Assembly (NCBI GenBank): GCA_945865545.1
Contig: CAMBEQ010000007.1
Coordinates: 196 to 64,195, forward strand
From: Sediminibacterium ginsengisoli
GTDB lineage: Bacteria > Bacteroidota > Bacteroidia > Chitinophagales > Chitinophagaceae
Direction: 5' to 3'
DNA: 64,000 bases
Part shown: piece after piece, positions 26,896 through 40,936 of the stretch
Numbering within the stretch: the first letter of the stretch is position 1
Layout: every line of letters starts with the position of its first letter
Notes under the pieces: generated by a model
What the model was told of the DNA's origin: nothing
What the model saw: only the letters and a program-made list of their open reading frames with translations
Database searches by the model: none
Translations under genes and position numbers: made by a program

Positions 26896-28251
26896 TTAGA
26901 TTATTTTAAAATCCATTTTTTGCGAGTTTGACAATACTAAATAATTTAAACTGAAAGTAACAGATGGATAAAAAATATTTGGAATTCTTTCAAATAAACA
27001 GAGAGCTCCGATAGTACCATTCCAAACTTTTTTTCTAATTAAACACAAGTAAAACGATCGAAAGTCAATTTTAATAGTTAACAATCCTTTGCACTCGGAT
27101 TGGTTACTTCTTAATGTAAATTCACAAATCGGATTATCAAGTACTTCATTCAACTCTTCATTTAATGTCAAATCCTTATATAAAATAAATTTTATATCCT
27201 GTTCTATTTCTATATTTTTTTGGGTAATTACATCAATCCAATTACATTTGGCTATTTCAAAAAGCTCAGATATTTTCTCAATTGAAACTTCACAGACTTC
27301 CATTTCATAATCATATAAATCGTCTTTGTGATTATCAATACTTTTTATAATTTCACTGCAAAGAGGTAAAAATTCAGTGGATAATTGTATAGGATTTTTA
27401 AGGCCTAAATTAATCTTAACACTATTGCCACCTTCTAAATGCAATAAATTACAGTCTATATTGTTATTTTTTAATGAATCTCGTATTTCATTGATCGAAG
27501 GCTGAGCAATCAGTGAATTTAAAGGATGAAGTTTCCCTGGAATGATATATGTGCCTCCTGCAGGAAAATAATACTCAGGTTTTAAAATATTTAATTTTTC
27601 AACAAGTTTTCGCAAACTACTTTTAATTATAAACTCCTTTTCTTGAATTCTTTCAATATTTAAAAACATATGAGGATATTCACTAGCAGCTCCTGCCATC
27701 AAAGCGGCAATTGTTATTTTACCATAGTTAGTATCAATCCAATTACTAAGTTTTATATAATCATTTGTAGAATAAGGATTATCAACTTGATTAAAAAATA
27801 CATGAGTCCCGTCTGAAATAATAAATGAAGTATCAAGATCATATTCAACATCTTCATCAAGATCATCGGAATTGGATGACATTTGAGGGAGTATTGACAT
27901 TATAACTTTTCCTAATGTAAATTTTTCATAAGGTTGAAGTTCGTATATCTCTCTTACACCAATTAATTTTAATTTATTTATAAGTACTTTAAAATGAAAA
28001 TTTTTAATGATAAATTTTTTTTCTACTAGTTTACTTTCAATTAAAAAGTTTAAATCTAGATGGTCATCGTGCAAATGCGATATATATACTATATCCACAT
28101 TTTCTAGGTGTGTTATTAACTGACTTTTATCATATTCTGGGAATGAATGCCAACCACCATAATTTGCTATCCCAACCCATGGGTCACAACAAATTTTCAT
28201 GTTATTGACTTCAATAGTTATAAATGAATTTGATAAATGTGTAATTTTCAT
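26896..28251 (-). CDS. Metallo-beta-lactamase-fold protein resembling the catalytic domain of CMP-N-acetylneuraminate hydroxylase (CMAH), lacking the Rieske domain
   Basis: ITHLSNS, DPWV...GGW, DIVYISHLHDDHL, LDTSFII, FFNQVD, AGAASEYP, LKPEYYFPAGG. Confidence 0.7.
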   Translation of the reverse strand: MKITHLSNSFITIEVNNMKICCDPWVGIANYGGWHSFPEYDKSQLITHLENVDIVYISHLHDDHLDLNFLIESKLVEKKFIIKNFHFKVLINKLKLIGVREIYELQPYEKFTLGKVIMSILPQMSSNSDDLDEDVEYDLDTSFIISDGTHVFFNQVDNPYSTNDYIKLSNWIDTNYGKITIAALMAGAASEYPHMFLNIERIQEKEFIIKSSLRKLVEKLNILKPEYYFPAGGTYIIPGKLHPLNSLIAQPSINEIRDSLKNNNIDCNLLHLEGGNSVKINLGLKNPIQLSTEFLPLCSEIIKSIDNHKDDLYDYEMEVCEVSIEKISELFEIAKCNWIDVITQKNIEIEQDIKFILYKDLTLNEELNEVLDNPICEFTLRSNQSECKGLLTIKIDFRSFYLCLIRKKVWNGTIGALCLFERIPNIFYPSVTFSLNYLVLSNSQKMDFKII

Positions 28252-28257
28252 AAATAA

Positions 28258-28920
28258 TTATTTTGTAGCTATAGCAATTATAGATGTACTTCTCCCTTTT
28301 AAAAATCCAGGTATATATTTAGCATCCCCCCTAAAAGGTAACAAATAGTTTGCTTTAAAAAATCGATATTCCCCTAAATAAAACCATTTAGCTTTACATC
28401 TTAAACCTGGATAGGTTTTTGGATTACTAAATCCGTACATTAATAATATACGTTCTAAAGTCAATGGATTATATGGCTTTACATGTGTAGGGTCATTATA
28501 AAATGCTCTATAATCATAAAACCAATTTGGGGTAGTAATATAAATTATACCGCCAGGTTTCAATACTCGAAATATTTCACTTAGAAAATTATCTGGATTT
28601 GAAATGTGTTCAATAACGGCCAAAGAAACTATGAATTCAATAGAATCATTCTCATAAGGAAATCTATCGAATTCAAAATTAATATCTGTTATATCTAATC
28701 CTAGATATTCCATTTGTCTTGTTACAACAGGTTTTTTTAGATGTTGATCCCCACAACCTAAATCTAAGAAACGTATGTTTCCTTTGTTATTAGGAATTGT
28801 ATTTTGATAAATTTCTAAAATATTAAATAGTGTTTGTATTTCTCTTTCACCTTTTTCTTGTCTATTGATAATCTTACTTGATTTTTCACGTTCCTGTTCA
28901 AAATATTTTAGTCCTAGCAT
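28258..28920 (-). CDS. Class I SAM-dependent methyltransferase
   Basis: FLDLGCG, FPYENDSIEFIVSLAVIEH, RVLKPGGIIYITTPN. Confidence 0.9.
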   Translation of the reverse strand: MLGLKYFEQEREKSSKIINRQEKGEREIQTLFNILEIYQNTIPNNKGNIRFLDLGCGDQHLKKPVVTRQMEYLGLDITDINFEFDRFPYENDSIEFIVSLAVIEHISNPDNFLSEIFRVLKPGGIIYITTPNWFYDYRAFYNDPTHVKPYNPLTLERILLMYGFSNPKTYPGLRCKAKWFYLGEYRFFKANYLLPFRGDAKYIPGFLKGRSTSIIAIATK

Positions 28921-29007: not shown

Positions 29008-30024
29008 TTAGAAAATTATTTTTAAAATAGTTCCTCCCCAAGAATAACCAACTCCGAAACCAGCTAATAAAATATGATTTCCTTTAAATAATTTATTCTC
29101 TATTTTTGCATGGTAAAGTGCTATAGGAATTGTTGATGATACAGTATTTCCACAATCTTCAATGTGCATATAAAATTTATCATTTTCTATTGCTGACTTT
29201 TTCTTGAGGCTATCAAGCATGAATTTATTTGCTTGATGAAAAATATATAAATCGATATCACCTTTATTAAGCATATTCTTATTTAAAGTTTCTAAAATCA
29301 AATTTGGAACAGATGCTAAAGTAAATAAAAATATCTCCTGCCCATTCATATATAAGAAGTCATCAGGATTATATTCATCAGTATTTGAAACAGGGCCGTG
29401 AGCAAATGTACTAAAATTTCTTAATCCGCGATTTCTAACAATTAGATTTTCAGCTCCTTTACCATCTGTGCCATATTGAAAGTCCATGATTTCAGCAAAT
29501 CCAGTTTCTGAAGAAATTAATGTTGCAGCTGCTGCATCACCGAAGATAGTCCTATTTCCTTTATCACTTGGGTGAATAAATTTAGAATAAGTCTCAGAGG
29601 TTATTAATAAAACGTTTTTAGCTTGTTGCGAATGGATTAATCCTTTTGCCAAACCTAGTCCATATATATAACCTGAACATCCCAGATTAATATCTATTGC
29701 ACCAGTTGTTGTAGAAAGTCCTAATTTGTCCTGAATTATACATGCTGTAGTAGGTAAAAAATAATCAGGACTTTGAGTGCATAAAATGATATAGTCTATT
29801 AAATTTTTTTCAATATTATGTTCAGCAAAAAGTTTTTTTGCAACTTCTATTGCCATATCACCTGAAGTCTGATTTATATCTGAAATAAACCTATTTCGAA
29901 TACCTGTTTTTTCAATGATTTTTTGGCTTGGCCATTCTGGAAATTCTATATTAATTTTATCATTATCTAAAACATTTGTTGGTAAATAATATGATATAGC
30001 TCTTATAAATGATTTCATTTTCAC
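29008..30024 (-). CDS. 3-oxoacyl-ACP synthase III (FabH-like), copy 1
   Basis: Catalytic triad LGCSG / FHQAN / GNTVSSTIP; FGDAAAA; GFGVGYSWG. Confidence 0.92.
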   Translation of the reverse strand: MKMKSFIRAISYYLPTNVLDNDKINIEFPEWPSQKIIEKTGIRNRFISDINQTSGDMAIEVAKKLFAEHNIEKNLIDYIILCTQSPDYFLPTTACIIQDKLGLSTTTGAIDINLGCSGYIYGLGLAKGLIHSQQAKNVLLITSETYSKFIHPSDKGNRTIFGDAAAATLISSETGFAEIMDFQYGTDGKGAENLIVRNRGLRNFSTFAHGPVSNTDEYNPDDFLYMNGQEIFLFTLASVPNLILETLNKNMLNKGDIDLYIFHQANKFMLDSLKKKSAIENDKFYMHIEDCGNTVSSTIPIALYHAKIENKLFKGNHILLAGFGVGYSWGGTILKIIF

Positions 30025-30034
30025 AATGGATTAA

Positions 30035-30781
30035 TTAAAAAGTACTAGATCTACCTCCATCAATATTTAAAACTGCGCCTGTAATCCATCTACTTTTAGA
30101 GGAAAGCAAAAAAACCGACAAATTAGCAACGTCTTCTGGGATCCCATATCCAAGAGGGTATTTTTTTTTATCAATTAAAATCGCCTCTAAAGATACTTTA
30201 GATTCAATTTCTACAGTCAATTTAGTTTCAACTTGACCAGGAGCAATAGAATTAACCCTTATTCGTTGAGATGCTAATTCTGATGCTAAAACTTTAGTTG
30301 TTGAATTCAAAGCTGCTTTTGTAGATGAATAAATTGAATTTCCTTTCATTCCCATTTCACTTGCAATAGAACTAATAAAAATTATTGACGCGTCTTTATT
30401 TATTTTTTTAATTTTCAATAACTTTGAAATTATTACCAAAATTGAATCGTAATTAACTTTTCGGATTTTATTTAGAACTTCGATATTAAAGAATTTTATA
30501 GGAAGTAATTGAACAATTCCAGCACAGTGAACAATGCCATCAAGTTGATGATCTATTTTCGAAATTAATTTATCTAACCCATCTATGTTTATTAAATCAT
30601 AATTTATTCCAACAAAACTCGGTAATTGATTTGATAAAGCATTTAACTTTTCAGTATTTCTACCTACCCCAATTACTATACCTCCATATTTTGAAATTTG
30701 AAGACATGTTTCAAGCCCTATACCTGAAGTAGCGCCAGTAACCAAAAATACTTTTCCGTTTAAATTTATAAAATTTTCCAC
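30035..30781 (-). CDS. Classical SDR oxidoreductase (FabG-like 3-oxoacyl-ACP reductase)
   Basis: VTGATSGIG, HCAG, SSIAS, YSSTK, RVNSIAPG, WITG..LNIDGG. Confidence 0.88.
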   Translation of the reverse strand: MENFINLNGKVFLVTGATSGIGLETCLQISKYGGIVIGVGRNTEKLNALSNQLPSFVGINYDLINIDGLDKLISKIDHQLDGIVHCAGIVQLLPIKFFNIEVLNKIRKVNYDSILVIISKLLKIKKINKDASIIFISSIASEMGMKGNSIYSSTKAALNSTTKVLASELASQRIRVNSIAPGQVETKLTVEIESKVSLEAILIDKKKYPLGYGIPEDVANLSVFLLSSKSRWITGAVLNIDGGRSSTF

Positions 30782-31867
30782 TTATATTAATTCTAAATAT
30801 TTTTCATGAAAACTATTGATTCTACTCTCTTCTTTACCCAAAAAATATGTATTTTCAACAAATGGCATATTTTTTTGAATTTGTTCAAGAATAACTTTAT
30901 CTTCTTCAAGAATTTGATTGATAGAAGTTTTAACCATTTCTAGAAATGCTTTATGAATAGCCTCCTTAGGAATAAAATTATCTCGAAATTTAGGGCTATA
31001 AAAACGCTTTCTTAATATTGATTTTTCTGAATTTACTGGCAAAATATTGCCTACATAAATACTTGTTCCTTCTGTTGATGAAATCAATAAGTTAGGAAAA
31101 ATAAAATAGTGTCTAAAAGTATCATGTTTAATTTCGATATTGTCAAGGTATTTTAATAATTTATTGCCTTCATCTACTTTATCCGATTTTGGATAATCTG
31201 CAACCGAATGTCCATTATAATAATCGTTATTTACTTCTGATTTTCTACAAAACCCCATATTATATAATGTGTTTTGATGAATTGCTGGACAGTGATATGC
31301 TTCAACAACATTTTCAACAATTAATTTCCAATTAATGTTTTGCAAATCATCCTCGAAATAAAAATTATAGTCTATTGCTAAACTTACTTCTAATAGCTTA
31401 TCATGAAAAACTCCCAAATATTCTTTTATCGACTCTGAATTTTGATCAAGGGAAACGAATACAAATTTTCCTACTATTTCTATCCGCAAAGGCTTAACCT
31501 TTAAACAATTGAAATCTTGATGACTCTCATTAAAAGAAGATTTCTTTGGAATTGACTTAACATTACCCTCTTTATCAAAACTCCAATTATGGTATCCACA
31601 TATAAAAAAATCTATTCCTTTAGTTTTAGTTTGAATCCTGTTAAATCTGTGCGGGCATATGTTTTGAAATGCCCTTAATTCACCATTAAAGTTTTGTATA
31701 ACAATTGGGTAATCTAAGATGTCCAGTGTAATAAATGAATTATTTTCTAAGAAATCACTTAACATTCCTGCAAATAACCAATTTTTTGAAAATACTTTAT
31801 CGAACTCTAATTGCTGAGTACTATTTCCAAAATAAAATTTTGGATGAATTAATTTATTGTTATCCAT
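30782..31867 (-). CDS. Rieske non-heme iron oxygenase, alpha-subunit type
   Basis: Rieske ligands NICPHR / FICGYHNW; mononuclear Fe site ENVVEAYHCPAIH ... EEDK; NWKL; IFPNL. Confidence 0.92.
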   Translation of the reverse strand: MDNNKLIHPKFYFGNSTQQLEFDKVFSKNWLFAGMLSDFLENNSFITLDILDYPIVIQNFNGELRAFQNICPHRFNRIQTKTKGIDFFICGYHNWSFDKEGNVKSIPKKSSFNESHQDFNCLKVKPLRIEIVGKFVFVSLDQNSESIKEYLGVFHDKLLEVSLAIDYNFYFEDDLQNINWKLIVENVVEAYHCPAIHQNTLYNMGFCRKSEVNNDYYNGHSVADYPKSDKVDEGNKLLKYLDNIEIKHDTFRHYFIFPNLLISSTEGTSIYVGNILPVNSEKSILRKRFYSPKFRDNFIPKEAIHKAFLEMVKTSINQILEEDKVILEQIQKNMPFVENTYFLGKEESRINSFHEKYLELI

Positions 31868-32936
31868 GGTAATAACTCATATTCGTTTTTAAAGATTTGT
31901 TTAAATTCAATAAAACACTACCCCAAGAAAGTCCTACGCCAAATCCACAGAGCAACACAGACAAATTATTTTTTTGAATTAAATTATTAAATGACTGAAC
32001 AATTGTTAAGGGTATAGATGCACCATTTGTATTTCCGAAGTTTTGAATAGAATTAGGCATTTTGTCTTTGTCAACTTTTAATTTTTTTCTTATTGTCTCA
32101 TTCATAAATAAATTAGCTTGATGGAGAAAAAAATAATCGATATCATCTGTCCTTTTTGACACATATTTAAGAATATTGAAAATTGAATTCGGAGCTTTCT
32201 TTATGGCAAAATTAAACACATCTATGCCTTCTAATTGCAAATCAACACTACTTCTTTTGCCTTGTGATGGGTCATTTATATTAATATCTTTTAAATCAAA
32301 TGAATTTTTATTAGTTCTAAACCTTGATCCTCCAGCCTTAATTTTTATTGCATCACTACCTGTGCCATCACTACCTATATCGAATGTCCAATTACAATTG
32401 GATTGAATATCAAATTCAATTGCTGTTGCTGTCCCAGCATCGCCAAATAATGGATAAACGCTTTTATCATACTTAGAAGTATATGTGCTAATTGTATCCC
32501 CCACCAACAATAATGCTCTATTGAACTTAATGTTTTGAAGTAAGTTTGAAACCAAACTTAACCCATAAATGTATCCCGAGCAGCCTAACGATACATCTAG
32601 ACAAAAACAATCTTGACTTAGACCAAGTCTACTTTGCAATAAATTAGATGTTGCTGGTAAAATATAATCTGATGACTGAGACACAAAAATTAAAATATCA
32701 ATATCATCTTTATGCCAAGCAAGTTCAGTAAGAATTTTTTCAGCAGCCTGTAAACACAAGTCAGACGCACAAGAATCACCTTCTGAGATATGTCGCTGAG
32801 TTATGCCTGTATTTTGTATAAATTTTTCTGCATCTTCATTCGAAAAAAAATCTAAATCAACGGTGCGAATTTTTTTTTCAGGAACACATGCTGAAATACC
32901 CCTTATCTGAACATTTTGAACTTCTAGCAAAGCCAT
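31860..32936 (-). CDS. 3-oxoacyl-ACP synthase III (FabH-like), copy 2
   Basis: LGCSG / LHQAN / GNTNGASIP triad; FGDAGTA; GFGVGLSWG. Confidence 0.92.
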   Translation of the reverse strand: MALLEVQNVQIRGISACVPEKKIRTVDLDFFSNEDAEKFIQNTGITQRHISEGDSCASDLCLQAAEKILTELAWHKDDIDILIFVSQSSDYILPATSNLLQSRLGLSQDCFCLDVSLGCSGYIYGLSLVSNLLQNIKFNRALLLVGDTISTYTSKYDKSVYPLFGDAGTATAIEFDIQSNCNWTFDIGSDGTGSDAIKIKAGGSRFRTNKNSFDLKDININDPSQGKRSSVDLQLEGIDVFNFAIKKAPNSIFNILKYVSKRTDDIDYFFLHQANLFMNETIRKKLKVDKDKMPNSIQNFGNTNGASIPLTIVQSFNNLIQKNNLSVLLCGFGVGLSWGSVLLNLNKSLKTNMSYYHG

Positions 32937-32941
32937 ATTGA

Positions 32942-33169
32942 TTACTTATTACTTAATAATTGAAATAAATCTTCAATTGTAGTACAATTCTTGAAATCCT
33001 CACCAGAAAGAGTTTTTGAATAGTTTTCATCTATAAAAGCAATAATTATTAAAGCCATCATCGAACTCCACTCATCTAATTCCCTAAAATTTGTTTCAAG
33101 GTTTATTAAGCTCAAGTCGGTGTCATCAAATTGCTCCTGAAATCCTTTTAAAAATTCTTCTCTTGTCAT
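32942..33169 (-). CDS. Acyl carrier protein
   Basis: 75 aa, acidic, ELDEWSSMMAL (phosphopantetheine Ser region), CTTIEDLF. Confidence 0.88.
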   Translation of the reverse strand: MTREEFLKGFQEQFDDTDLSLINLETNFRELDEWSSMMALIIIAFIDENYSKTLSGEDFKNCTTIEDLFQLLSNK

Positions 33170-33693
33170 GATATTTTATTTAAAATTTTCCTTATTTTTT
33201 TTGTTTTATTTTTATAATTATCTCTTGATATTGTAAAGTAGACATAATCAGCTGTACTTTTTTCTTCATTCACAATACCCCCTTGTGCGATAGTTGATGA
33301 TATTGCTTTTTTGTTGTCTCGTTTTACATGAGAGAAAATAAAATTTAAGTTCAAATCATCAAATACAAAATCATTGAAGCACAATATCATTCTAGCAACA
33401 ATACTAGATTCTTCGAATTTCTCGCTTGCTAGATAAATTGCTCCTTCCCCTGAGTTTTCTATAATATTTCTAATATTAATAACTCCTACTTTTTCATTTT
33501 TGTACTCTCCGATGAAATAATAATTAAGTTCATTATTAATTTCATCAAACCATTTCTCTTGCATCTCTTTTGTTATGTATTCATTCGAAACCATTCTTTT
33601 ATTAACAAAATCGGAATTCCTCCAGTTTCTTAGCAATTCCAAATCGCTATAACAAACTCTTCTTAGAGAAATATTAAATTTATTTTTTTGCAA
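33166..33693 (-). CDS. pseH: PseH-type GNAT N-acyltransferase
   Basis: DLELLRNWRNS..V...M.....IT.EMQEKWF N-terminus; directly follows pseI; TTG start. Confidence 0.82.
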   Translation of the reverse strand: MQKNKFNISLRRVCYSDLELLRNWRNSDFVNKRMVSNEYITKEMQEKWFDEINNELNYYFIGEYKNEKVGVINIRNIIENSGEGAIYLASEKFEESSIVARMILCFNDFVFDDLNLNFIFSHVKRDNKKAISSTIAQGGIVNEEKSTADYVYFTISRDNYKNKTKKIRKILNKIS

Positions 33694-33711: not shown

Positions 33712-34752
33712 TTAATGTAAATCATCCAAACTTAACCTATCTCCTTTTTCTAAATCTCGTTTAACGATTTTTCCCAAAACCTCGTAATAATATTTAGGAT
33801 GGAGGCCATATCCAGGCCTAATTGATCTAATATTATTCTTACTAATAATTGCACCAGATTTAATATCTTCAACAACATATAAGGAACGACAATAATCTTT
33901 GCCACGCTGTTGTTTCTCTGACAATTGATAATCAATTTTTCCAATTGCTCTCTCCGCATCTCTAATTGACTTTACCATTTGAGTAAATTCAGTTTCATCC
34001 ATTGAAAAAGATGCGTCTGGTCCACCAATTGAATGATCTAAAATAAAATGTTTTTCTATGATTTTCGCCCCAAAACAAGTTGCCACAATAGGCACCGTAC
34101 TACCTATTGTATGATCAGATAGACCTGCAATAACGCCAAATTTATAAGAAAAATCTTTTACCATAACCATATTAGCTTCCTCAATTGGAGCAGGGTAACT
34201 TGATGTACATTTTAATAATGCAACTTCGTAATTACCTTGTTTATGACATGCATTGATTGCTAATTCGATATCTTCCAAAGTTGCTATTCCGGTTGAAATA
34301 ATTACAGGTTTCCCTTTAGATGCAACTAATTCAATTAACGGGATATCTGTTATTTCAAAAGAAGCAATTTTGTATGCTGGTGCATCCAAACTTTCTAATA
34401 ATTCTACAGCAGATGGATCGAAAGGCGAGGAAAAACAAATTAACCCCTCTTGCTTTGCTACCTTAAATAATTCTACATGCCATTCCCAAGGAGTAAAAGC
34501 TTCCTGATAAAGTTCAAAAAGATTTCTTCCATCCCAAATACTCCCACTATTAATTAAAAAATCATTTTTTTTTGAATCAAGGGTAATTGTGTCAGCTTTG
34601 TAAGTCTGCAGTTTTATACAATCTGCACCTGCTCTTTTTGCAGCTTTAATAGTTTCAATCGCGATCTCGATACTCCCATTGTGATTTGCGGACAACTCTG
34701 CAATTATAAAAACTTTGGAAGTTTGATTAATAGTAAAATTATCGATTTTCAT
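33712..34752 (-). CDS. pseI: Pseudaminic acid synthase
   Basis: FIIAELSANHNG, KLQTY, FTPWEWH, KIASFE, KCTSSYPA, GLSDHT, IEKHF, C-terminal SAF domain. Confidence 0.96.
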   Translation of the reverse strand: MKIDNFTINQTSKVFIIAELSANHNGSIEIAIETIKAAKRAGADCIKLQTYKADTITLDSKKNDFLINSGSIWDGRNLFELYQEAFTPWEWHVELFKVAKQEGLICFSSPFDPSAVELLESLDAPAYKIASFEITDIPLIELVASKGKPVIISTGIATLEDIELAINACHKQGNYEVALLKCTSSYPAPIEEANMVMVKDFSYKFGVIAGLSDHTIGSTVPIVATCFGAKIIEKHFILDHSIGGPDASFSMDETEFTQMVKSIRDAERAIGKIDYQLSEKQQRGKDYCRSLYVVEDIKSGAIISKNNIRSIRPGYGLHPKYYYEVLGKIVKRDLEKGDRLSLDDLH

Positions 34753-34811: not shown

Positions 34812-35798
34812 TCAATTATCTATTGCTAGATTATAAAATATATTTAAATAATTTTGATCATTTAAGTTTATTTTATTTTTTTGATTTTGTATAATATTTT
34901 TTTTATTCTTCAACAAAAAGAATGCGTCAGTTAATCTAATTTGATAATCTTCGGAATTAAAATGATTTATATTTACAATCAACCCCAACTTCTCAAATTC
35001 GGATAATGAAAACCTCTGATTTTCTACAAACCATCCAGATATTATTGGTATACCAACTGTAAAGGCTTCCAATAATATAGTACTAGCTGGCAAAATTGCA
35101 AAATCAGACTTTCTAATAAGTTCAATTATATTACTAGGATTTAAGTTACTGAATGTATTAATCTGAGCTTTTTCATTACTAATTTCATTAACTAAACTTT
35201 CATTAACCAAAATATTGAAAATATCAATTTTATTTTTAATTAATACTTTGATTGTTTCATTTATTAATCTAATTTGATTACTGCCTCCAAAGCAAATAAA
35301 TACACTTTTAAAGTTATCTGAAATAATTGTATTTCGCTTTAATTTTGAAATTTTTCTAAATTCTTTTTTAACCATTAAATAGTCTAACCCTAAGTAAAAT
35401 CTAGTTTTAGTATTAGAATTGTAATCTTCTTTTTTATATACAACTCCATGGTTTATAATTGCATCGCAATTATAAACCATGGAGTTTAAATCGTCAATTA
35501 CAACTAATTTTACATTTTTTTTATTGATTTCACTTTGTACATATTCATTAAATTCATAAGAATCTACTACAACAATATTTCCAGGTTTTAAAAGATCAAA
35601 GAAATCATTCTCATCATCTACAAATATAATTGAATAATGATTGGTTTTTATTAAGTCGACATTTGTAGTAATATTTTTATTAAAGACGAAATTAACTTTA
35701 TACTTATTTTCAGTTATTTCAGCAATAGAAAGACATCTAGAGTAATGTCCAAAACCAATTATATTATTAAAATCAGTTCTAAAAAATATTTTATTCAC
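34812..35798 (-). CDS. pseG: UDP-2,4-diacylamido-2,4,6-trideoxy-beta-L-altropyranose hydrolase
   Basis: FRTD...IGFGHYSRCL, VVDSY, VIDD, LGLDYLMVKKEF, CFGGS, ENQ. Confidence 0.85.
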   Translation of the reverse strand: MNKIFFRTDFNNIIGFGHYSRCLSIAEITENKYKVNFVFNKNITTNVDLIKTNHYSIIFVDDENDFFDLLKPGNIVVVDSYEFNEYVQSEINKKNVKLVVIDDLNSMVYNCDAIINHGVVYKKEDYNSNTKTRFYLGLDYLMVKKEFRKISKLKRNTIISDNFKSVFICFGGSNQIRLINETIKVLIKNKIDIFNILVNESLVNEISNEKAQINTFSNLNPSNIIELIRKSDFAILPASTILLEAFTVGIPIISGWFVENQRFSLSEFEKLGLIVNINHFNSEDYQIRLTDAFFLLKNKKNIIQNQKNKINLNDQNYLNIFYNLAIDN

Positions 35799-35800
35799 AA

Positions 35801-36016
35801 TTATTCTAGTACATTTTTTTTAAACTCTTGAGCATTTGAAATTTTTTTTATTTTTGTCCACTGCTTCCCAATTTCTAAATTATTTGATCCTTTATAAACG
35901 TCTAATGTTTCTGTATCTATAAGAACCCATTTTCTGGGAGCCTTCGTATAAACTGAAAGTGTAATTGCATTATCTAATTCTGGGATTTCTTCATCAATAC
36001 ATTTTCTCATTTTCAT
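35801..36016 (-). CDS. Small hypothetical protein embedded in the pse operon
   Basis: 71 aa; ATGA overlap with the pseF stop; ends 2 nt before the pseG start. Confidence 0.6.
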   Translation of the reverse strand: MKMRKCIDEEIPELDNAITLSVYTKAPRKWVLIDTETLDVYKGSNNLEIGKQWTKIKKISNAQEFKKNVLE

Positions 36017-36702
36017 ACTAAATGATTATTGATTTTATATTTTATTTCTGCCAAATTCCAATCTTCTTCATTATCAATATCTTGAACATGAAATCCATCT
36101 AAAATAACTGGTTTAATACTACTAAAATTTCTTTTAGTTAAACTTTCACTTGAATACCAATACCATTGTCCACAGTCATGATATGCAACTTGCAAATCTT
36201 GACTTCTTGTTTTTTCAAACTCAGGCCACCTCATTTTAACATTTCCATGTTCATCTAAAATAAGGCTTCTTAAAATTGGATATGAAAAAGTAGTAATTGG
36301 ATAAACAACATCAATTTCTCTATTTTTTGATAATATTTCATAACCATTGGCAATATCTTTAACTTGAATCAATGGCGCGGTTGGATATATACAACAAATA
36401 TTTATAAACGATTTATTTCTTAATGCATATTCTTTAACTACCTCATCTATAACATCTAAAGTTGTTGCAAAATCATTTGAATTTTCTTGACTTCTATAAA
36501 AAGGTACTTTTGCACCATATTTTATAGCAACTTCAGCAATTTCAATATCATCCGTTGAAACCATAACTTGATCAAATAACTCAGATTTTAAAGCAGCTTC
36601 TATTGAATATGCAATTATTGGTTTGCCAAAAAAATCTTTTATATTTTTTCTTGGAATTCTTTTACTACCCCCTCTAGCTGGTATTATAGCTAAATTATCC
36701 AT
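36013..36702 (-). CDS. pseF: Pseudaminic acid cytidylyltransferase
   Basis: AIIPARGGSKRIPRKNIK, VSTDD, CCIYPTAP, RSQDL, DCGQWYW, QDIDNEEDW. Confidence 0.95.
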   Translation of the reverse strand: MDNLAIIPARGGSKRIPRKNIKDFFGKPIIAYSIEAALKSELFDQVMVSTDDIEIAEVAIKYGAKVPFYRSQENSNDFATTLDVIDEVVKEYALRNKSFINICCIYPTAPLIQVKDIANGYEILSKNREIDVVYPITTFSYPILRSLILDEHGNVKMRWPEFEKTRSQDLQVAYHDCGQWYWYSSESLTKRNFSSIKPVILDGFHVQDIDNEEDWNLAEIKYKINNHLV

Positions 36703-37900
36703 TGTAAAATTCTTTGATTTTATTAATTACAAAATCTTGGTCAGATTCGGTAAGTGTTGGATACATTGGTAAGCTAATACAACGTGTATAATATTCTTCG
36801 GCATTTGTCATATCTCCAGCTTTCCACCCAAATTGTCTATAATAGGGCATTAAATGGGTAGGTATATAATGTATTTGAGCAAATATTTTATTTTCTTTTA
36901 GAAAATTATAAAGCTCTAATCGTTTATCTACCTCAATTATATATAAATGATAAGCATGCCCTTTTAAAAAGCCAGATTGCCCTTTAATAAATTTACAAAC
37001 GCTAAATGCTTCATTATATTTTTCAGCAATTTGACTTCTCTTTTCAATTCCTGAGTCTGCTCTTTTCAGTTGAGAAATACCTAATGCAGATTGAAAATCT
37101 GTAAGTCTATAATTGTAGCCAAGTTCTTGCATTTCCATATACCATCCTGGAAAATTTTGATTTTCCATACTTGAATTAGAAATACCACTTGCCCAATTAA
37201 TATCATTAATAAATTCATTGCTTGATCTTATTATACCATGTGAGCGTAATTTTATAAGCCTTTTATAAAGTAATTCGTTATTTGTTGTAATCATACCCCC
37301 TTCACCAGTTGCAATATGTTTTACAGGATGAAATGAAAAAATAGCCAAATCAGCAAATTTACTATTTCCACAATATTGTTTTATATTATTACTATCTAGA
37401 AAAAACCCACCTGGAGCATGACACGCATCTTCAATAATCCAAAGTCCAAATTCGTCTGCTAAATTTCTAAATTCCTCTAAATTAATTGCCCTTCCTGCGA
37501 AATCAACAGGAATAATTCCTTTATAAGTTCCTTTGGGTGCAGATTCAAGTAAATGCCTAACTTTTTGAATATCTAATAAATATGTTTGAGGATTGATATC
37601 ACTAAAAACAACCTCACCTCCACAATATCTTATGCAATTAGCAGATGCCGCAAATGTAATTGGTGTTGTAATTACCTTTTGCCCTTCTTTTATACTAAGA
37701 GCTAGTGCACATAAATGCAATGCGGCTGTTCCATTTGCAACTGCGACTGCATATTTACATCCAATATAATCTGCAAATTTTGATTCAAATTCTTCAATTT
37801 TTGGACCTTGAGTTAAATAGTCTGACTTTAAAGCTTTAACAACAGCTTCAATATCTTCATCTGTTATATGTTGTTTGCCGTATGGTATATTAAGCTCCAT
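36695..37900 (-). CDS. pseC: UDP-4-amino-4,6-dideoxy-N-acetyl-beta-L-altrosamine transaminase
   Basis: IPYGKQHI, LTQGP, NGTAALH, EDACHA, FSFHPVKHIATGEGG, LGYNYRLTD. Confidence 0.95.
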   Translation of the reverse strand: MELNIPYGKQHITDEDIEAVVKALKSDYLTQGPKIEEFESKFADYIGCKYAVAVANGTAALHLCALALSIKEGQKVITTPITFAASANCIRYCGGEVVFSDINPQTYLLDIQKVRHLLESAPKGTYKGIIPVDFAGRAINLEEFRNLADEFGLWIIEDACHAPGGFFLDSNNIKQYCGNSKFADLAIFSFHPVKHIATGEGGMITTNNELLYKRLIKLRSHGIIRSSNEFINDINWASGISNSSMENQNFPGWYMEMQELGYNYRLTDFQSALGISQLKRADSGIEKRSQIAEKYNEAFSVCKFIKGQSGFLKGHAYHLYIIEVDKRLELYNFLKENKIFAQIHYIPTHLMPYYRQFGWKAGDMTNAEEYYTRCISLPMYPTLTESDQDFVINKIKEFYNG

Positions 37901-37903
37901 GTT

Positions 37904-38932
37904 TTAAATGGAAAACGTTTTATCTACATGTTCTTGAATTAAGAGTCTCAACTCCTCTATCGATACCCATTCTGAATTGGTTCCTGAATTGTAAGTAAAC
38001 CCTTCAATTACTTTTTGTGCTTTAAACTTTTCTACAAAGTCACTTATTGACCATTTTGGAGTTTGTGGAATAATGGCAAAATATTTACCTAAATCATATG
38101 TAAAAAAAGAATCTGAAGAAGTTATCATTTCTTCATGAATTTTCTCACCTGGCCTAATACCAATAATTCTTTGTTCACAATTTGGTCCAATTGCGGATGC
38201 AATATCTGTAATACGGTATGATGGAATCTTAGGAACAAATATTTCTCCACCCCATGCTGAATTTAATGCATGTAAAACCATATCAACTCCCCCTTGTAAT
38301 GAAATATTAAATCTTGTCATTTCTGCAACTGTAATTGGCAATACACCTTCTTCTCTTTTTTTTATAAAAAAAGGAATAACAGAGCCATTGGAACCCATAA
38401 CATTTCCATATCGAACAACAGAAAATACAATTGGATTAGTTCCTTTTATGTTATTTGCTGCTATGAATAATTTATCTGATGCTAATTTAGTCGCTCCATA
38501 TAAATTAATTGGTGCAGCAGCTTTATCTGTTGACAAAGCTACAACCTTAGTTACACCAGTTTCTAATGCTGCGTTTATTACATTTTCTGCTCCATTTATG
38601 TTTGTTTTAATACATTCCATTGGATTATACTCAGCAATAGGCACGTGCTTCATTGCTGCAGCATGAATAATATAATCTACCCCTTTAAATGCCATTCTTA
38701 GCCTTTCATAATCTCTTACATCTCCAATAAAAAAACGTAATTGAGGGTAATCCTTAATTGGATATTCTTGAGCCATCTGAAATTGCTTCTGTTCATCCCT
38801 AGAAAGAATGATAATTTTTTTAATTTTGGGCCATTTAGAAACTATATTTTTGGTCAGAGCCTTACCAAGAGATCCAGTGCCGCCTGTTATCAAAATAGTT
38901 TTATCATCTAAATTTAAACTACTATTTATCAT
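37904..38932 (-). CDS. pseB: UDP-N-acetylglucosamine 4,6-dehydratase (inverting)
   Basis: TGGTGSLG, SRDEQKQ, HAAAMKHVP.AEYNP, STDKAAAPINLYGATK, RYGNV.GS.GSV, GIRPGEKIHE. Confidence 0.96.
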   Translation of the reverse strand: MINSSLNLDDKTILITGGTGSLGKALTKNIVSKWPKIKKIIILSRDEQKQFQMAQEYPIKDYPQLRFFIGDVRDYERLRMAFKGVDYIIHAAAMKHVPIAEYNPMECIKTNINGAENVINAALETGVTKVVALSTDKAAAPINLYGATKLASDKLFIAANNIKGTNPIVFSVVRYGNVMGSNGSVIPFFIKKREEGVLPITVAEMTRFNISLQGGVDMVLHALNSAWGGEIFVPKIPSYRITDIASAIGPNCEQRIIGIRPGEKIHEEMITSSDSFFTYDLGKYFAIIPQTPKWSISDFVEKFKAQKVIEGFTYNSGTNSEWVSIEELRLLIQEHVDKTFSI

Positions 38933-39845
38933 AATATTTTTTTAAAATCTATAATTTTTTTCTTCAAGCCTTCATTCAAAGGAATTTTATTCCTCCATCC
39001 AAGTGAAGTAATTTTTGTAATATATAATAATTTTTCTACACGTTCCATTTGGTATACTTTGATCAAATTCAAAGCTTTCATTATATACAATTATTTCTTT
39101 AATGATTTTTGCAATTTTATAAATTGAAATTTCTAAGCCGTTTCCAATTTTTACTTTAGCACTTTCATTATAATTTTGTTTAAGAAAGAAACAAGCTTCA
39201 GCAAGATCATCAACATGCAAAAATTCTCTTCTGGTCCTACCTGTTCCCCAAATAGATACCCTTGCGTCATTATTTATTTTTACAAAAACAACTCTTCTAA
39301 TAAATGCAGGAAGCCCATTTGAATTATCTGGATGGTAATTATCATTGGTGCGATACAAATTAATAGGCATAGCAGAGATGAAATTACAACCATATTGTGC
39401 CCTATAACTATCACACATTTCAATTCCTGCTATTTTAGCAATTGCATAAGGTTGGTTTGTATATTTTAGATATCCACTTAATAAATATTCTTCTTTTAAA
39501 GGCTGCTCAGCTAATTTAGGATATATGCAAGATGAATAAATATATAATAACTTATTTAAATATTAAGAATGAATAATATTTGCCTCAATAATTAAATTAT
39601 CGTAAATAAATTCTACTCTATAAAGTATTATTTGAGTAAATTCCACCCACCTTTGCTGCAGCAAGTATTACAAATTCAGGTTTTTCTTTTTCAAAAAAAT
39701 TATTTACTGCTTGTTGATTTCTTAAATCTAGTTCAATAGAAGTTCTTGTCATTAATGTTGTTTTACCCCATCTTAATTTACGATCTAAGCTAGAATCTAC
39801 CATTCCTCTATGTCCAGCCATATATATTTTAGCAGTTTGTTTCAT
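38922..39845 (-). pseudogene. fcl: GDP-L-fucose synthase pseudogene
   Basis: Continuous Fcl homology broken by a +1 frameshift near 39622, an in-frame TAA at 39563-39565 and a +1 frameshift in the T5 run at 39031-39035. Conserved motifs also eroded (GSA to DSS, PTNLYG to PINLYR). The original stop overlaps the pseB start. Confidence 0.9.
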
Positions 39846-39847
39846 GG

Positions 39848-40936
39848 TTATAATCCACTTTCTTTGATATACAATTCCTTTTTAAATAAAGAAATATCAC
39901 TCGCTACCATTTCTTTAACCAATGCCGCTAAATCATATTTAGGCTTCCATCCTAATTTAGTCATTGCTTTTTTAGGATCCCCAATTAATAAATCAACTTC
40001 CGTTGGTCTATAATATTTAGGATCCACTTTTACAACAACTCTGCCTTGTTCTAATTTGTATTCACCAGTATTTTTAACAACATAACCTTCTTCTGCTTCA
40101 TTTTTTCCTCTAAATCCTAATTCTATACCCAACTCTGCAAAACTCATTTTCACAAAATCACGAATTGTAGTAGTGATACCAGTTGCTAAAACAAAATCCT
40201 CAGGTTTTTCTTGTTGCAATATCAAATACATTCCTTCTATATAATCTTTTGCGTGTCCCCAGTCTCTTTTAGCATCTAAGTTTCCTAAGTATAAACAATT
40301 GTCCATGCCTAAAACAATTTTTGCTGTTGCTCTCGTGATTTTTCTAGTTACAAAGGTTTCACCTCTTTGTGGAGATTCGTGATTAAACAAAATACCATTA
40401 CAAGCATACATATTATATGCTTCTCTATAGTTTACTGTTATCCAATATGCATATAGCTTGGCAACAGCATAAGGAGACCGTGGATAAAATGGAGTTGTTT
40501 CAGATTGAGGCACAGCTTGTACTAAACCATACAATTCTGAAGTAGATGCTTGGTAAATTTTTGTTTTCTTAATTAAACCTAATAGACGAACTGCTTCTAA
40601 AATTCTTAATGTACCAATACCATCTGCATTTGCTGTATATTCAGGTTCTTCGAAACTCACATGTACATGGCTCATTGCTGCTAGGTTATATATTTCGTCA
40701 GGTTGAACTTCTTGAATGATACGAATTAAATTAGTACTATCAGTTAAATCACCATAATGTAAATGAAGATGCCTGTTTGGTGTATGTGGATCTTCGTATA
40801 TATGATCAATCCTTTGTGTGTTTATTAATGAAGCCCTTCTCTTAATACCATGCACTTCATATCCCTTTTTTAATAAGAACTCGGCAAGATAAGCGCCGTC
40901 TTGCCCAGTAATTCCAGTAATGATTGCCTTTTTCAT
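39848..40936 (-). CDS. gmd: GDP-mannose 4,6-dehydratase
   Basis: [73 protein letters not shown]. Confidence 0.97.

Follow-up and report, generated by a model that had tools for sequence, protein, structure and literature searches.

Two divergent type III ketoacyl synthases and a Rieske oxygenase within a pseudaminic acid operon of Sediminibacterium: a portable cassette predicted to build an oxygenated N-acyl side chain

A stretch of 64 kb from Sediminibacterium ginsengisoli (contig CAMBEQ010000007.1, positions 196–64,195; the whole stretch is termed the window here) carries six contiguous genes on the minus strand, inside a long minus-strand operon. These encode a GNAT-type N-acyltransferase, a dedicated acyl carrier protein (ACP), two divergent 3-ketoacyl-ACP synthases of type III (KAS III, termed KSA and KSB after their clades), a Rieske oxygenase and a short-chain dehydrogenase/reductase (SDR), in the order GNAT-ACP-KSA-Rieske-SDR-KSB. 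The reading we favour, with moderate confidence, is that of a portable module in which a dedicated ACP carries a growing acyl chain, short and oxygenated, that then takes the place of an acetyl group on an amino sugar; the chain would have six carbons (C6) and the target would be N7 of pseudaminic acid (Pse). The gene content, the intact catalytic residues, the conserved linkage of the genes and the module's portability are seen directly in the sequences. O-antigens, capsules and flagellin glycans owe major antigenic determinants to the N-acyl groups of nonulosonic acids and other amino sugars, and genes for the longer hydroxyacyl groups have so far been assigned by inference alone, in one fish pathogen. 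The genome is that of a low-G+C member of the Bacteroidota, with 2.26 Mb in 66 contigs and a completeness of 92%.

The two KAS III proteins are 34% identical to each other, and both score above the Pfam thresholds of PF08545 and PF08541. Alignment with Escherichia coli FabH (reference L084, whose numbering is used throughout) shows the catalytic triad Cys112, His244 and Asn274 intact in both. The triad is also invariant in their relatives, i.e. in 84/84 sequences of the KSA clade, 42/42 of the KSB clade and 12/12 of a third clade, termed KSA'. Decarboxylative condensation with malonyl-ACP is predicted for KSA and KSB from the intact triad. The two are members of the KAS III family and not housekeeping FabH enzymes. 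Both miss the cut-off of 292 bits set for bona fide FabH by TIGR00747 (KSB scores 235.8 and KSA 195 bits); with PRK09352, which has a cut-off of 249 bits, KSB passes at 269 bits and KSA fails at 226. In the phylogenetic tree KSA, KSA' and KSB form three separate clades, none of which includes the housekeeping FabH of this genome. The window's second KAS groups with KSB, and the second KAS of L032, a locus from a metagenome-assembled genome (MAG) labelled Flavobacterium psychrophilum, with KSA'. The best matches in the PDB are 4efi for KSA (5e-63) and 3gwa for KSB (1e-97), both structural-genomics entries from Burkholderia whose molecule names say just ‘3-oxoacyl-ACP synthase’.

The sequences are not those of type III polyketide synthases, which use CoA substrates iteratively and without an ACP. 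Matches to the domain Chal_sti_synt_N reach 27–32 bits over part of the domain, near the cut-off of 27 bits, and are far weaker than the KAS III domain matches; there is no match to the C-terminal chalcone synthase domain, and a dedicated ACP is present. Nor do they match the characterized KAS III-like acyltransferases DpsC and CerJ, which have an altered triad, with Ser or Cys together with His-Asp, and do not decarboxylate; Cys-His-Asn is conserved in both proteins of the window and in their clades.

The residues of E. coli FabH at positions 32, 36 and 249 are replaced in all three clades. W32 is Lys in KSA and KSB and is variable in KSA'; R36 is Thr or Ser in KSA and Lys in KSA' and KSB; R249 is Phe, Leu or Met in KSA and Phe or Tyr in KSA' and KSB. 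In FabH, W32 and R249 serve in binding of the coenzyme A (CoA) adenine and in docking of ACP. A conserved Trp is found at position 28 in KSB. The replacements, together with this Trp28, hint at a different mode of primer or ACP binding. An attempt to read primer preference from the CoA- and ACP-binding residues of FabH was dropped, as none of the three positions discriminates between the clades.

A six-frame translation of the window was searched with E. coli FabZ, FabD, FabI, FabG and FabH. The FabZ and FabD queries have no match anywhere in the 64 kb, the FabH query matches just the two KAS III genes, and the FabI query matches one ORF (open reading frame), which is the SDR itself. The single FabA/FabZ domain of the genome is part of a 470-aa open frame on contig 3, away from the cassette, and the single FabD is on contig 36, beside the housekeeping FabH. 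An earlier note on this DNA had reported two divergent KAS III enzymes with intact triads, one SDR and no FabZ/FabI-like gene, and its observation is confirmed. Its list of genes is right as regards the KAS III and SDR part; the Rieske oxygenase, the ACP and the PseH-like GNAT went unmentioned.

Between GNAT and KSB, neighbouring genes either overlap or are separated by no more than 10 nt; the overlap of the GNAT and ACP genes is 4 nt. The ACP gene is present in a single copy in the genome, and the Ser that aligns with the phosphopantetheine site of E. coli AcpP is invariant in 78/78 homologues. The SDR, which is the sole SDR of the cassette, is FabG-like: it retains S138, Y151 and K155 of FabG with the YxxxK spacing, has an Arg at the position of the NADPH 2′-phosphate in the alignment, and its ORF scores 83.7 bits with FabG vs 43.5 bits with FabI. 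The locus has the marks of a glycan cassette, namely an ACP with the conserved Ser adjoining KAS III and FabG-like reductase genes, and an adjacent N-acyltransferase together with an amino-sugar pathway (PseC and other Pse genes upstream).

The best NCBIfam match of the GNAT is PseH, at 50.7 bits where the cut-off is 93, and its best match in the PDB is PseH of Campylobacter jejuni (4xpk). It is the best PseH-like gene of the genome, in which no gene passes the PseH cut-off. In the pseudaminic acid pathway, the 4-amino group acylated in the PseH step ends up as N7 of pseudaminic acid. Because pseB, pseC, pseF, pseG and pseI are all present, the GNAT most likely fills this step, and N7 of pseudaminic acid is the most likely target here. 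Most likely the GNAT takes the acyl chain off the ACP and transfers it to the Pse precursor. The pairing of GNAT with ACP recurs in three of the related loci described below (L005, L006 and L020). A literature search for work tying together pseudaminic acid, 3-hydroxybutanoyl and ACP found none.

Related loci were obtained by a scan with KSA as the query, with one genome per species, which yielded 79 loci; the sample consists of the 80 best matches and is not a random draw. ORFs were called in these loci and scored against the window proteins. Counts of layouts use the 56 loci with complete flanks, and an acyltransferase is counted where a PglD-like protein (hexapeptide fold) or a GNAT is detected within 5 kb. 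KSA homologues number in the thousands, chiefly in Bacteroidota, and the closest metagenomic relatives show 83–87% identity. A KSA-clade gene is found in all 79 loci, which were retrieved with KSA. In most of the 79, a core of ACP and KSA, usually with an SDR, lies beside genes for an N-acyltransferase and a DegT aminotransferase. Two KAS III genes with one SDR make up the commonest layout (38/56 complete loci). KSA, KSB and one SDR are found in 30 of the 56, KSA and SDR with a single KAS in 11, KSA, KSA' and one SDR in seven, and KSA, KSB and Rieske, with or without an SDR, in three. Two KAS III enzymes and one reductase without a dehydratase are the commonest form of the module among the closest relatives, and no oddity. 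By this count 45 of the 56 loci have an acyltransferase, usually adjoining the ACP, among them 24 of the 30 loci with KSA, KSB and one SDR.

KSB and the Rieske protein have patchy distributions, as expected for variable glycan loci. KSB-type genes are present in 4/200 sampled genomes of the same family, and the Rieske protein in 1/400 other genomes sampled across the phylum (E ≤ 1e-30). The Rieske-bearing form is rare among the related loci, and in the loci fetched a Rieske gene is found just where KSB is present (the window, L005, L006, L042, L028, L033, L066 and L099).

The identical six-gene cassette GNAT-ACP-KSA-Rieske-SDR-KSB is found in two Flavobacterium loci, L005 and L006, with 65–68% identity, where it serves an RmlB/FdtA/DegT 3-amino-sugar pathway. 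L006, from Flavobacterium myungsuense CECT 7649, is flanked by genes for an RmlB-like dehydratase, two FdtA isomerases and DegT aminotransferases, and has no Pse genes. Thus the module, including the Rieske gene, is independent of the sugar. L099, which represents another family, has ACP-KSA-Rieske-SDR-KSB with the order unchanged. The Rieske gene accompanies the synthase/ACP module in the non-Pse sugar loci L005, L006, L042 and L099, i.e. it travels with the acyl-building rather than the sugar genes, which argues for action on the acyl chain. The Rieske protein of the window shows the motifs CPH...CGYH and E-x2-H-x4-H, and its nearest structures are those of the carnitine monooxygenase CntA and of Stc2.

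Several of the related loci have features of their own. In three loci from the same family as the window, KSB occurs in other ACP/KAS cassettes: L101 (G034) has PseI, an AAC(3)-fold N-acyltransferase, DUF4910, ACP and KSB; L102 (G044) has PseG-GNAT-ACP-KSB-KSB-PseI without SDR or KSA, one KSB copy having an internal TAA; and L103 (G141) has a CE4 deacetylase, ACP and KSB. L028, L033 and L066 share the order ACP-KSA-KSB-PglD-GT2-Rieske, followed by an FAD amine-oxidase-like gene, and have no SDR. Such a two-KAS cassette would yield a diketo chain unless a reductase comes from elsewhere. In L015, from a MAG labelled Neisseria sp., two copies of ACP-KSA-SDR-KSB stand in tandem, and the first of the two KSB genes is cut to ~95 codons. 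Frequent companions of the cassette are genes for an EamA-like small membrane protein and for a GT2 of the ArnC type, as in L006 (7924–9231) and many other loci (‘SDR GT2 GNAT’); some loci may thus load the acylated amino sugar onto polyprenyl phosphate as a carrier.

A route can be proposed from these properties, every step of which we infer. The housekeeping AcpS and FabD would supply holo-ACP and malonyl-ACP. One KAS III would condense acetyl-CoA with malonyl-ACP to give acetoacetyl-ACP, and the FabG-like reductase would convert this to 3-hydroxybutyryl-ACP. The other KAS III would add a second malonyl unit and the reductase would act again, and with no dehydratase or enoyl reductase the outcome would be a chain of the 3,5-dihydroxyhexanoyl type. 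Either KAS III may act first, since each clade provides the sole KAS of some cassettes elsewhere. The Rieske oxygenase may put a further oxygen onto the ACP-bound chain. The PseH-like GNAT, the sole candidate of the genome for the PseH step, would then transfer the chain to UDP-4-amino-4,6-dideoxy-beta-L-AltNAc, and PseG, PseI and PseF would lead to CMP-pseudaminic acid with the acyl group on N7, destined for a polysaccharide exported by Wzm/Wzt.

The earlier note had proposed that each KAS III extends once and that each keto group is reduced without dehydration, to give a 1,3-polyol. This interpretation is supported in part. It has a precedent in F. psychrophilum, where wfpC, wfpE, wfpD and wfpF go with a 3,5-dihydroxyhexanoyl group (Cisar et al. 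2019, PMC6519341). A plain 1,3-polyol, however, leaves the Rieske oxygenase out of account; given the place of this gene within the cassette, a product more highly oxidized than a simple diol is probable.

Several points weigh against the C6 chain on pseudaminic acid as set out above. The second KAS of the F. psychrophilum locus belongs to the KSA' clade and that of the window to KSB, hence the C6 diol is an analogy and not a demonstrated product. No KSB-type locus from an organism with a determined glycan structure was found in the literature. KSB is the sole KAS, without an SDR, in some cassettes (L101, L103 and L102), and KSA too can be the sole KAS; neither is therefore clearly an ‘elongation-only’ enzyme, and the product may have just four carbons (C4), with one KAS redundant or primed in another way. 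As W32 and R249 are replaced in all three clades, the delivery of substrates is unreadable from FabH. No acyltransferase is recognized within 5 kb in 6/30 loci with KSA, KSB and SDR. The GNAT of the window could use acetyl-CoA instead of the ACP-bound chain, and no ferredoxin or reductase partner for the Rieske protein is seen in the cassette.

A more specific proposal can be made tentatively, and with less assurance than the C6 module as such: that cassettes with KSB and Rieske make a tri-oxygenated C6 chain, e.g. trihydroxyhexanoyl, on the ACP, and that in the window the GNAT puts it on N7 of pseudaminic acid. If true, this would be a nonulosonic acid derivative so far undescribed, the action of a Rieske oxygenase on a short acyl-ACP would be shown for the first time in the biosynthesis of a glycan, and the same chemistry would explain a related cassette in a flagellar locus of Burkholderia, described below. 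A 291.1 Da glycan of Burkholderia pseudomallei flagellin (PMC3958885) has the nominal mass of a viosamine residue plus trihydroxyhexanoyl (291.13); the match was rejected as evidence, since a Neu5Ac residue shares this nominal mass.

The joint retention of KSA and KSB with one ACP and one SDR in 30/56 complete loci is hard to square with redundancy, and this bears on the most serious of the alternatives, which is nevertheless rather unlikely: a single extension to a C4 product (3-hydroxybutyryl, possibly hydroxylated by the Rieske enzyme). The second KAS III would then be an alternative initiator for a different starter, or an acyl-CoA:ACP transacylase that loads the primer, transacylation being a known side activity of FabH. 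Each KAS III can probably initiate, as KSA and KSB are each found as the sole KAS elsewhere (KSA with SDR in 11/56, ACP-KSB in L101 and L103), and KSB is more FabH-like than KSA by the PRK09352 scores (269 vs 226 bits). N-3-hydroxybutyryl nonulosonic acids are also chemically well known. On the other hand, the sole two-KAS cassette of known product makes a C6 chain, and the full triad, which is required for decarboxylative condensation, is invariant in all 42 KSB sequences.

Could one KAS III, most likely KSB, instead be the acyltransferase and deliver the completed chain of the ACP to the sugar, in the manner of DpsC and CerJ in antibiotic pathways? The six loci with no recognized acyltransferase would be accounted for, and KSB often adjoins a DegT aminotransferase gene. 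We consider this quite improbable, given the invariant Cys-His-Asn of the KSB clade, the GNAT or PglD-like N-acyltransferase within 5 kb in the window and in 24/30 loci, and the position of the GNAT as the only PseH candidate in the genome. A transacylase role for one KAS III was the alternative offered in the earlier note. As regards transfer to the sugar, such a role is disfavoured by the invariant triad and by the acyltransferases that flank 45/56 complete loci; in loading of the ACP it could still hold.

Least likely of all is a stand-alone minimal polyketide or lipid pathway with a product that is released: the weak Pfam similarity to chalcone synthase N-terminal domains and the fact that a chain that lactonizes needs no thioesterase are set against the absence of a cyclase, a thioesterase or an export gene of its own from a cassette placed between pseI and wzm/wzt, the amino-sugar and acyltransferase genes beside most of the 79 related loci, and published precedents that are all N-acyl sugars. 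The free-standing dissociated polyketide-like assembly of the earlier note is abandoned accordingly in favour of a side-chain module of a sugar pathway, inside the pseBCFGI operon.

The C6 side-chain module thus remains the reading that we prefer, and the genes that surround it are listed in Table 1. The reading order is pseB-pseC-pseF-71-aa ORF-pseG-pseI-GNAT-ACP-KSA-Rieske-SDR-KSB-methyltransferase-MBL-fold-wzm/wzt, where MBL stands for metallo-beta-lactamase.

Table 1. Genes of the cassette and of the operon that contains it, in reading order (positions are those of the window)
Gene or product	Position	Strand	Domains, scores and remarks
pseB	37904-38932	-	pseudaminic acid pathway; Pfam Polysacc_synt_2 among pathway domains
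pseC	36695-37900	-	pathway gene; Pfam DegT among pathway domains
pseF	36013-36702	-	pathway gene; Pfam CTP_transf_3 among pathway domains
71-aa ORF	35801-36016	-	between pseF and pseG
pseG	34812-35798	-	NCBIfam PseG 146.5 bits, slightly below cut-off 153.55
pseI	33712-34752	-	NCBIfam PseI 498 bits; Pfam NeuB among pathway domains
PseH-like GNAT, proposed N-acyltransferase	33166-33693	-	Pfam Acetyltransf_3
ACP, dedicated	32942-33169	-	PP-binding domain
KSA, KAS III of KSA clade, 358 aa	31860-32936	-	ACP_syn_III + ACP_syn_III_C
Rieske non-haem iron oxygenase, alpha subunit	30782-31867	-	Rieske + Ring_hydroxyl_A; between the two KAS III genes
FabG-like 3-ketoacyl-ACP reductase (SDR)	30035-30781	-	adh_short + KR domains, FabG models
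KSB, KAS III of KSB clade, 338 aa	29008-30024	-	ACP_syn_III + ACP_syn_III_C
S-adenosylmethionine-dependent methyltransferase, possible tailoring step	28258-28920	-	Methyltransf_23/11
Metallo-beta-lactamase-fold protein	26896-28251	minus-strand operon	downstream of methyltransferase
wzm and wzt	after MBL-fold gene in reading direction	minus-strand operon	

The methyltransferase and the MBL-fold protein are outside the portable cassette, and no methyltransferase homologue follows KSB in L005, L006 or L099. Two short ORFs of 143 and 75 aa at 38987–39845 carry fragments of an NAD-dependent epimerase/dehydratase domain. They are downstream of an intact GDP-mannose 4,6-dehydratase gene (39848–40936) and look like a broken fcl-type gene.

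A kit known from the O-antigen of a fish pathogen is present here in an undescribed variant, with a KSB-type second KAS, an inserted Rieske gene and a PseH-like GNAT that most likely feeds pseudaminic acid. It reveals no new principle. Three dedicated KAS III clades, KSA, KSA' and KSB, combine modularly with reductases, oxygenases and two acyltransferase folds, and the combinations of clades provide a rule of thumb for reading side-chain length and oxidation from sequence, which is of use in in-silico serotyping. F. myungsuense CECT 7649 is a cultured strain that carries the KSB/Rieske version.

Among known systems, the nearest is the O-polysaccharide of F. psychrophilum, where a 3,5-dihydroxyhexanoyl group on Qui2NAc4N was determined by nuclear magnetic resonance and assigned to wfpC-G (Cisar et al. 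2019, PMC6519341). There, wfpC and wfpE are ‘different 3-ketoacyl-ACP synthases’, wfpD is the ACP, wfpF a reductase and wfpG a PglD homologue (PMC6519341). Both systems combine two different KAS III enzymes with a dedicated ACP and one reductase, lack a dehydratase and an enoyl reductase, and adjoin genes for an N-acyltransferase and an amino-sugar pathway. The KSA-clade enzyme is common to them, and L032, the locus from the MAG labelled F. psychrophilum, has the order PglD-KSA-ACP-KSA'-SDR, with 50% identity. They differ in that the transferase of F. psychrophilum is PglD-like (LbH fold) and that of the window a PseH-like GNAT, in the sugar, which is bacillosamine there and pseudaminic acid here, and in the lack of a Rieske oxygenase from the Wfp locus. 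It should be added that the functions of the Wfp genes were inferred from the glycan structure and not by enzymology. The 3,5-dihydroxyhexanoyl group is also found on bacillosamine in Vibrio cholerae O3 and O100.

In Pseudomonas syringae pv. tabaci, a viosamine island (vioA, vioS, vioR, acp, vioB, vioM and vioT) leads to N-(3-hydroxybutyryl)viosamine (Yamamoto et al. 2011, PMC3927599). Deletion mutants of vioA, vioB, vioT, vioR and vioM were analysed, and the modified sugar is lost in the vioR mutant; for vioS and acp the assignment is based on homology (PMC3927599). The role of the reductase is backed by mutants and mass spectrometry. In types of enzyme the two loci agree: the island has a KAS III, a ketoreductase and an ACP, and also an acyltransferase, which together attach a 3-hydroxyacyl group to a 4-amino sugar, and a methyltransferase lies nearby. 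However, the island has one KAS III, with a C4 product, has no Rieske gene, and serves a flagellin glycan instead of a polysaccharide. In these two precedents, one KAS corresponds to a C4 chain and two KAS to a C6 1,3-diol. Viosamine with a 3-hydroxybutanoyl group is also known from the flagellin of Burkholderia cenocepacia.

Parts of the cassette are also found in Burkholderia glumae BGR1 (NZ_DQ996271.1, L096; 7856–13884), next to genes for flagellin, fliD, fliT and a TPR protein. The order is vioA, a KAS III that is 46.8% identical to KSB, ACP, a second KAS III, SDR, an acetyltransferase and Rieske, and the list of parts equals that of the window cassette, Rieske included. This locus, which is uncharacterized, differs in that it belongs to a Betaproteobacterium and is flagellar, the Rieske protein is just 25.6% identical, and the second KAS III is split in two frames in this record.

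With housekeeping FabH and type II fatty acid synthesis, the two KAS III enzymes share the fold, the domains and the Cys-His-Asn triad, and the cassette shares an ACP-bound chain that would be grown from malonyl units and a FabG-like reductase. It is set apart by the separate clades of its synthases, by their TIGR00747 scores below the cut-off and their replaced W32, R36 and R249, and by a dedicated ACP in a setting without FabZ or FabI.

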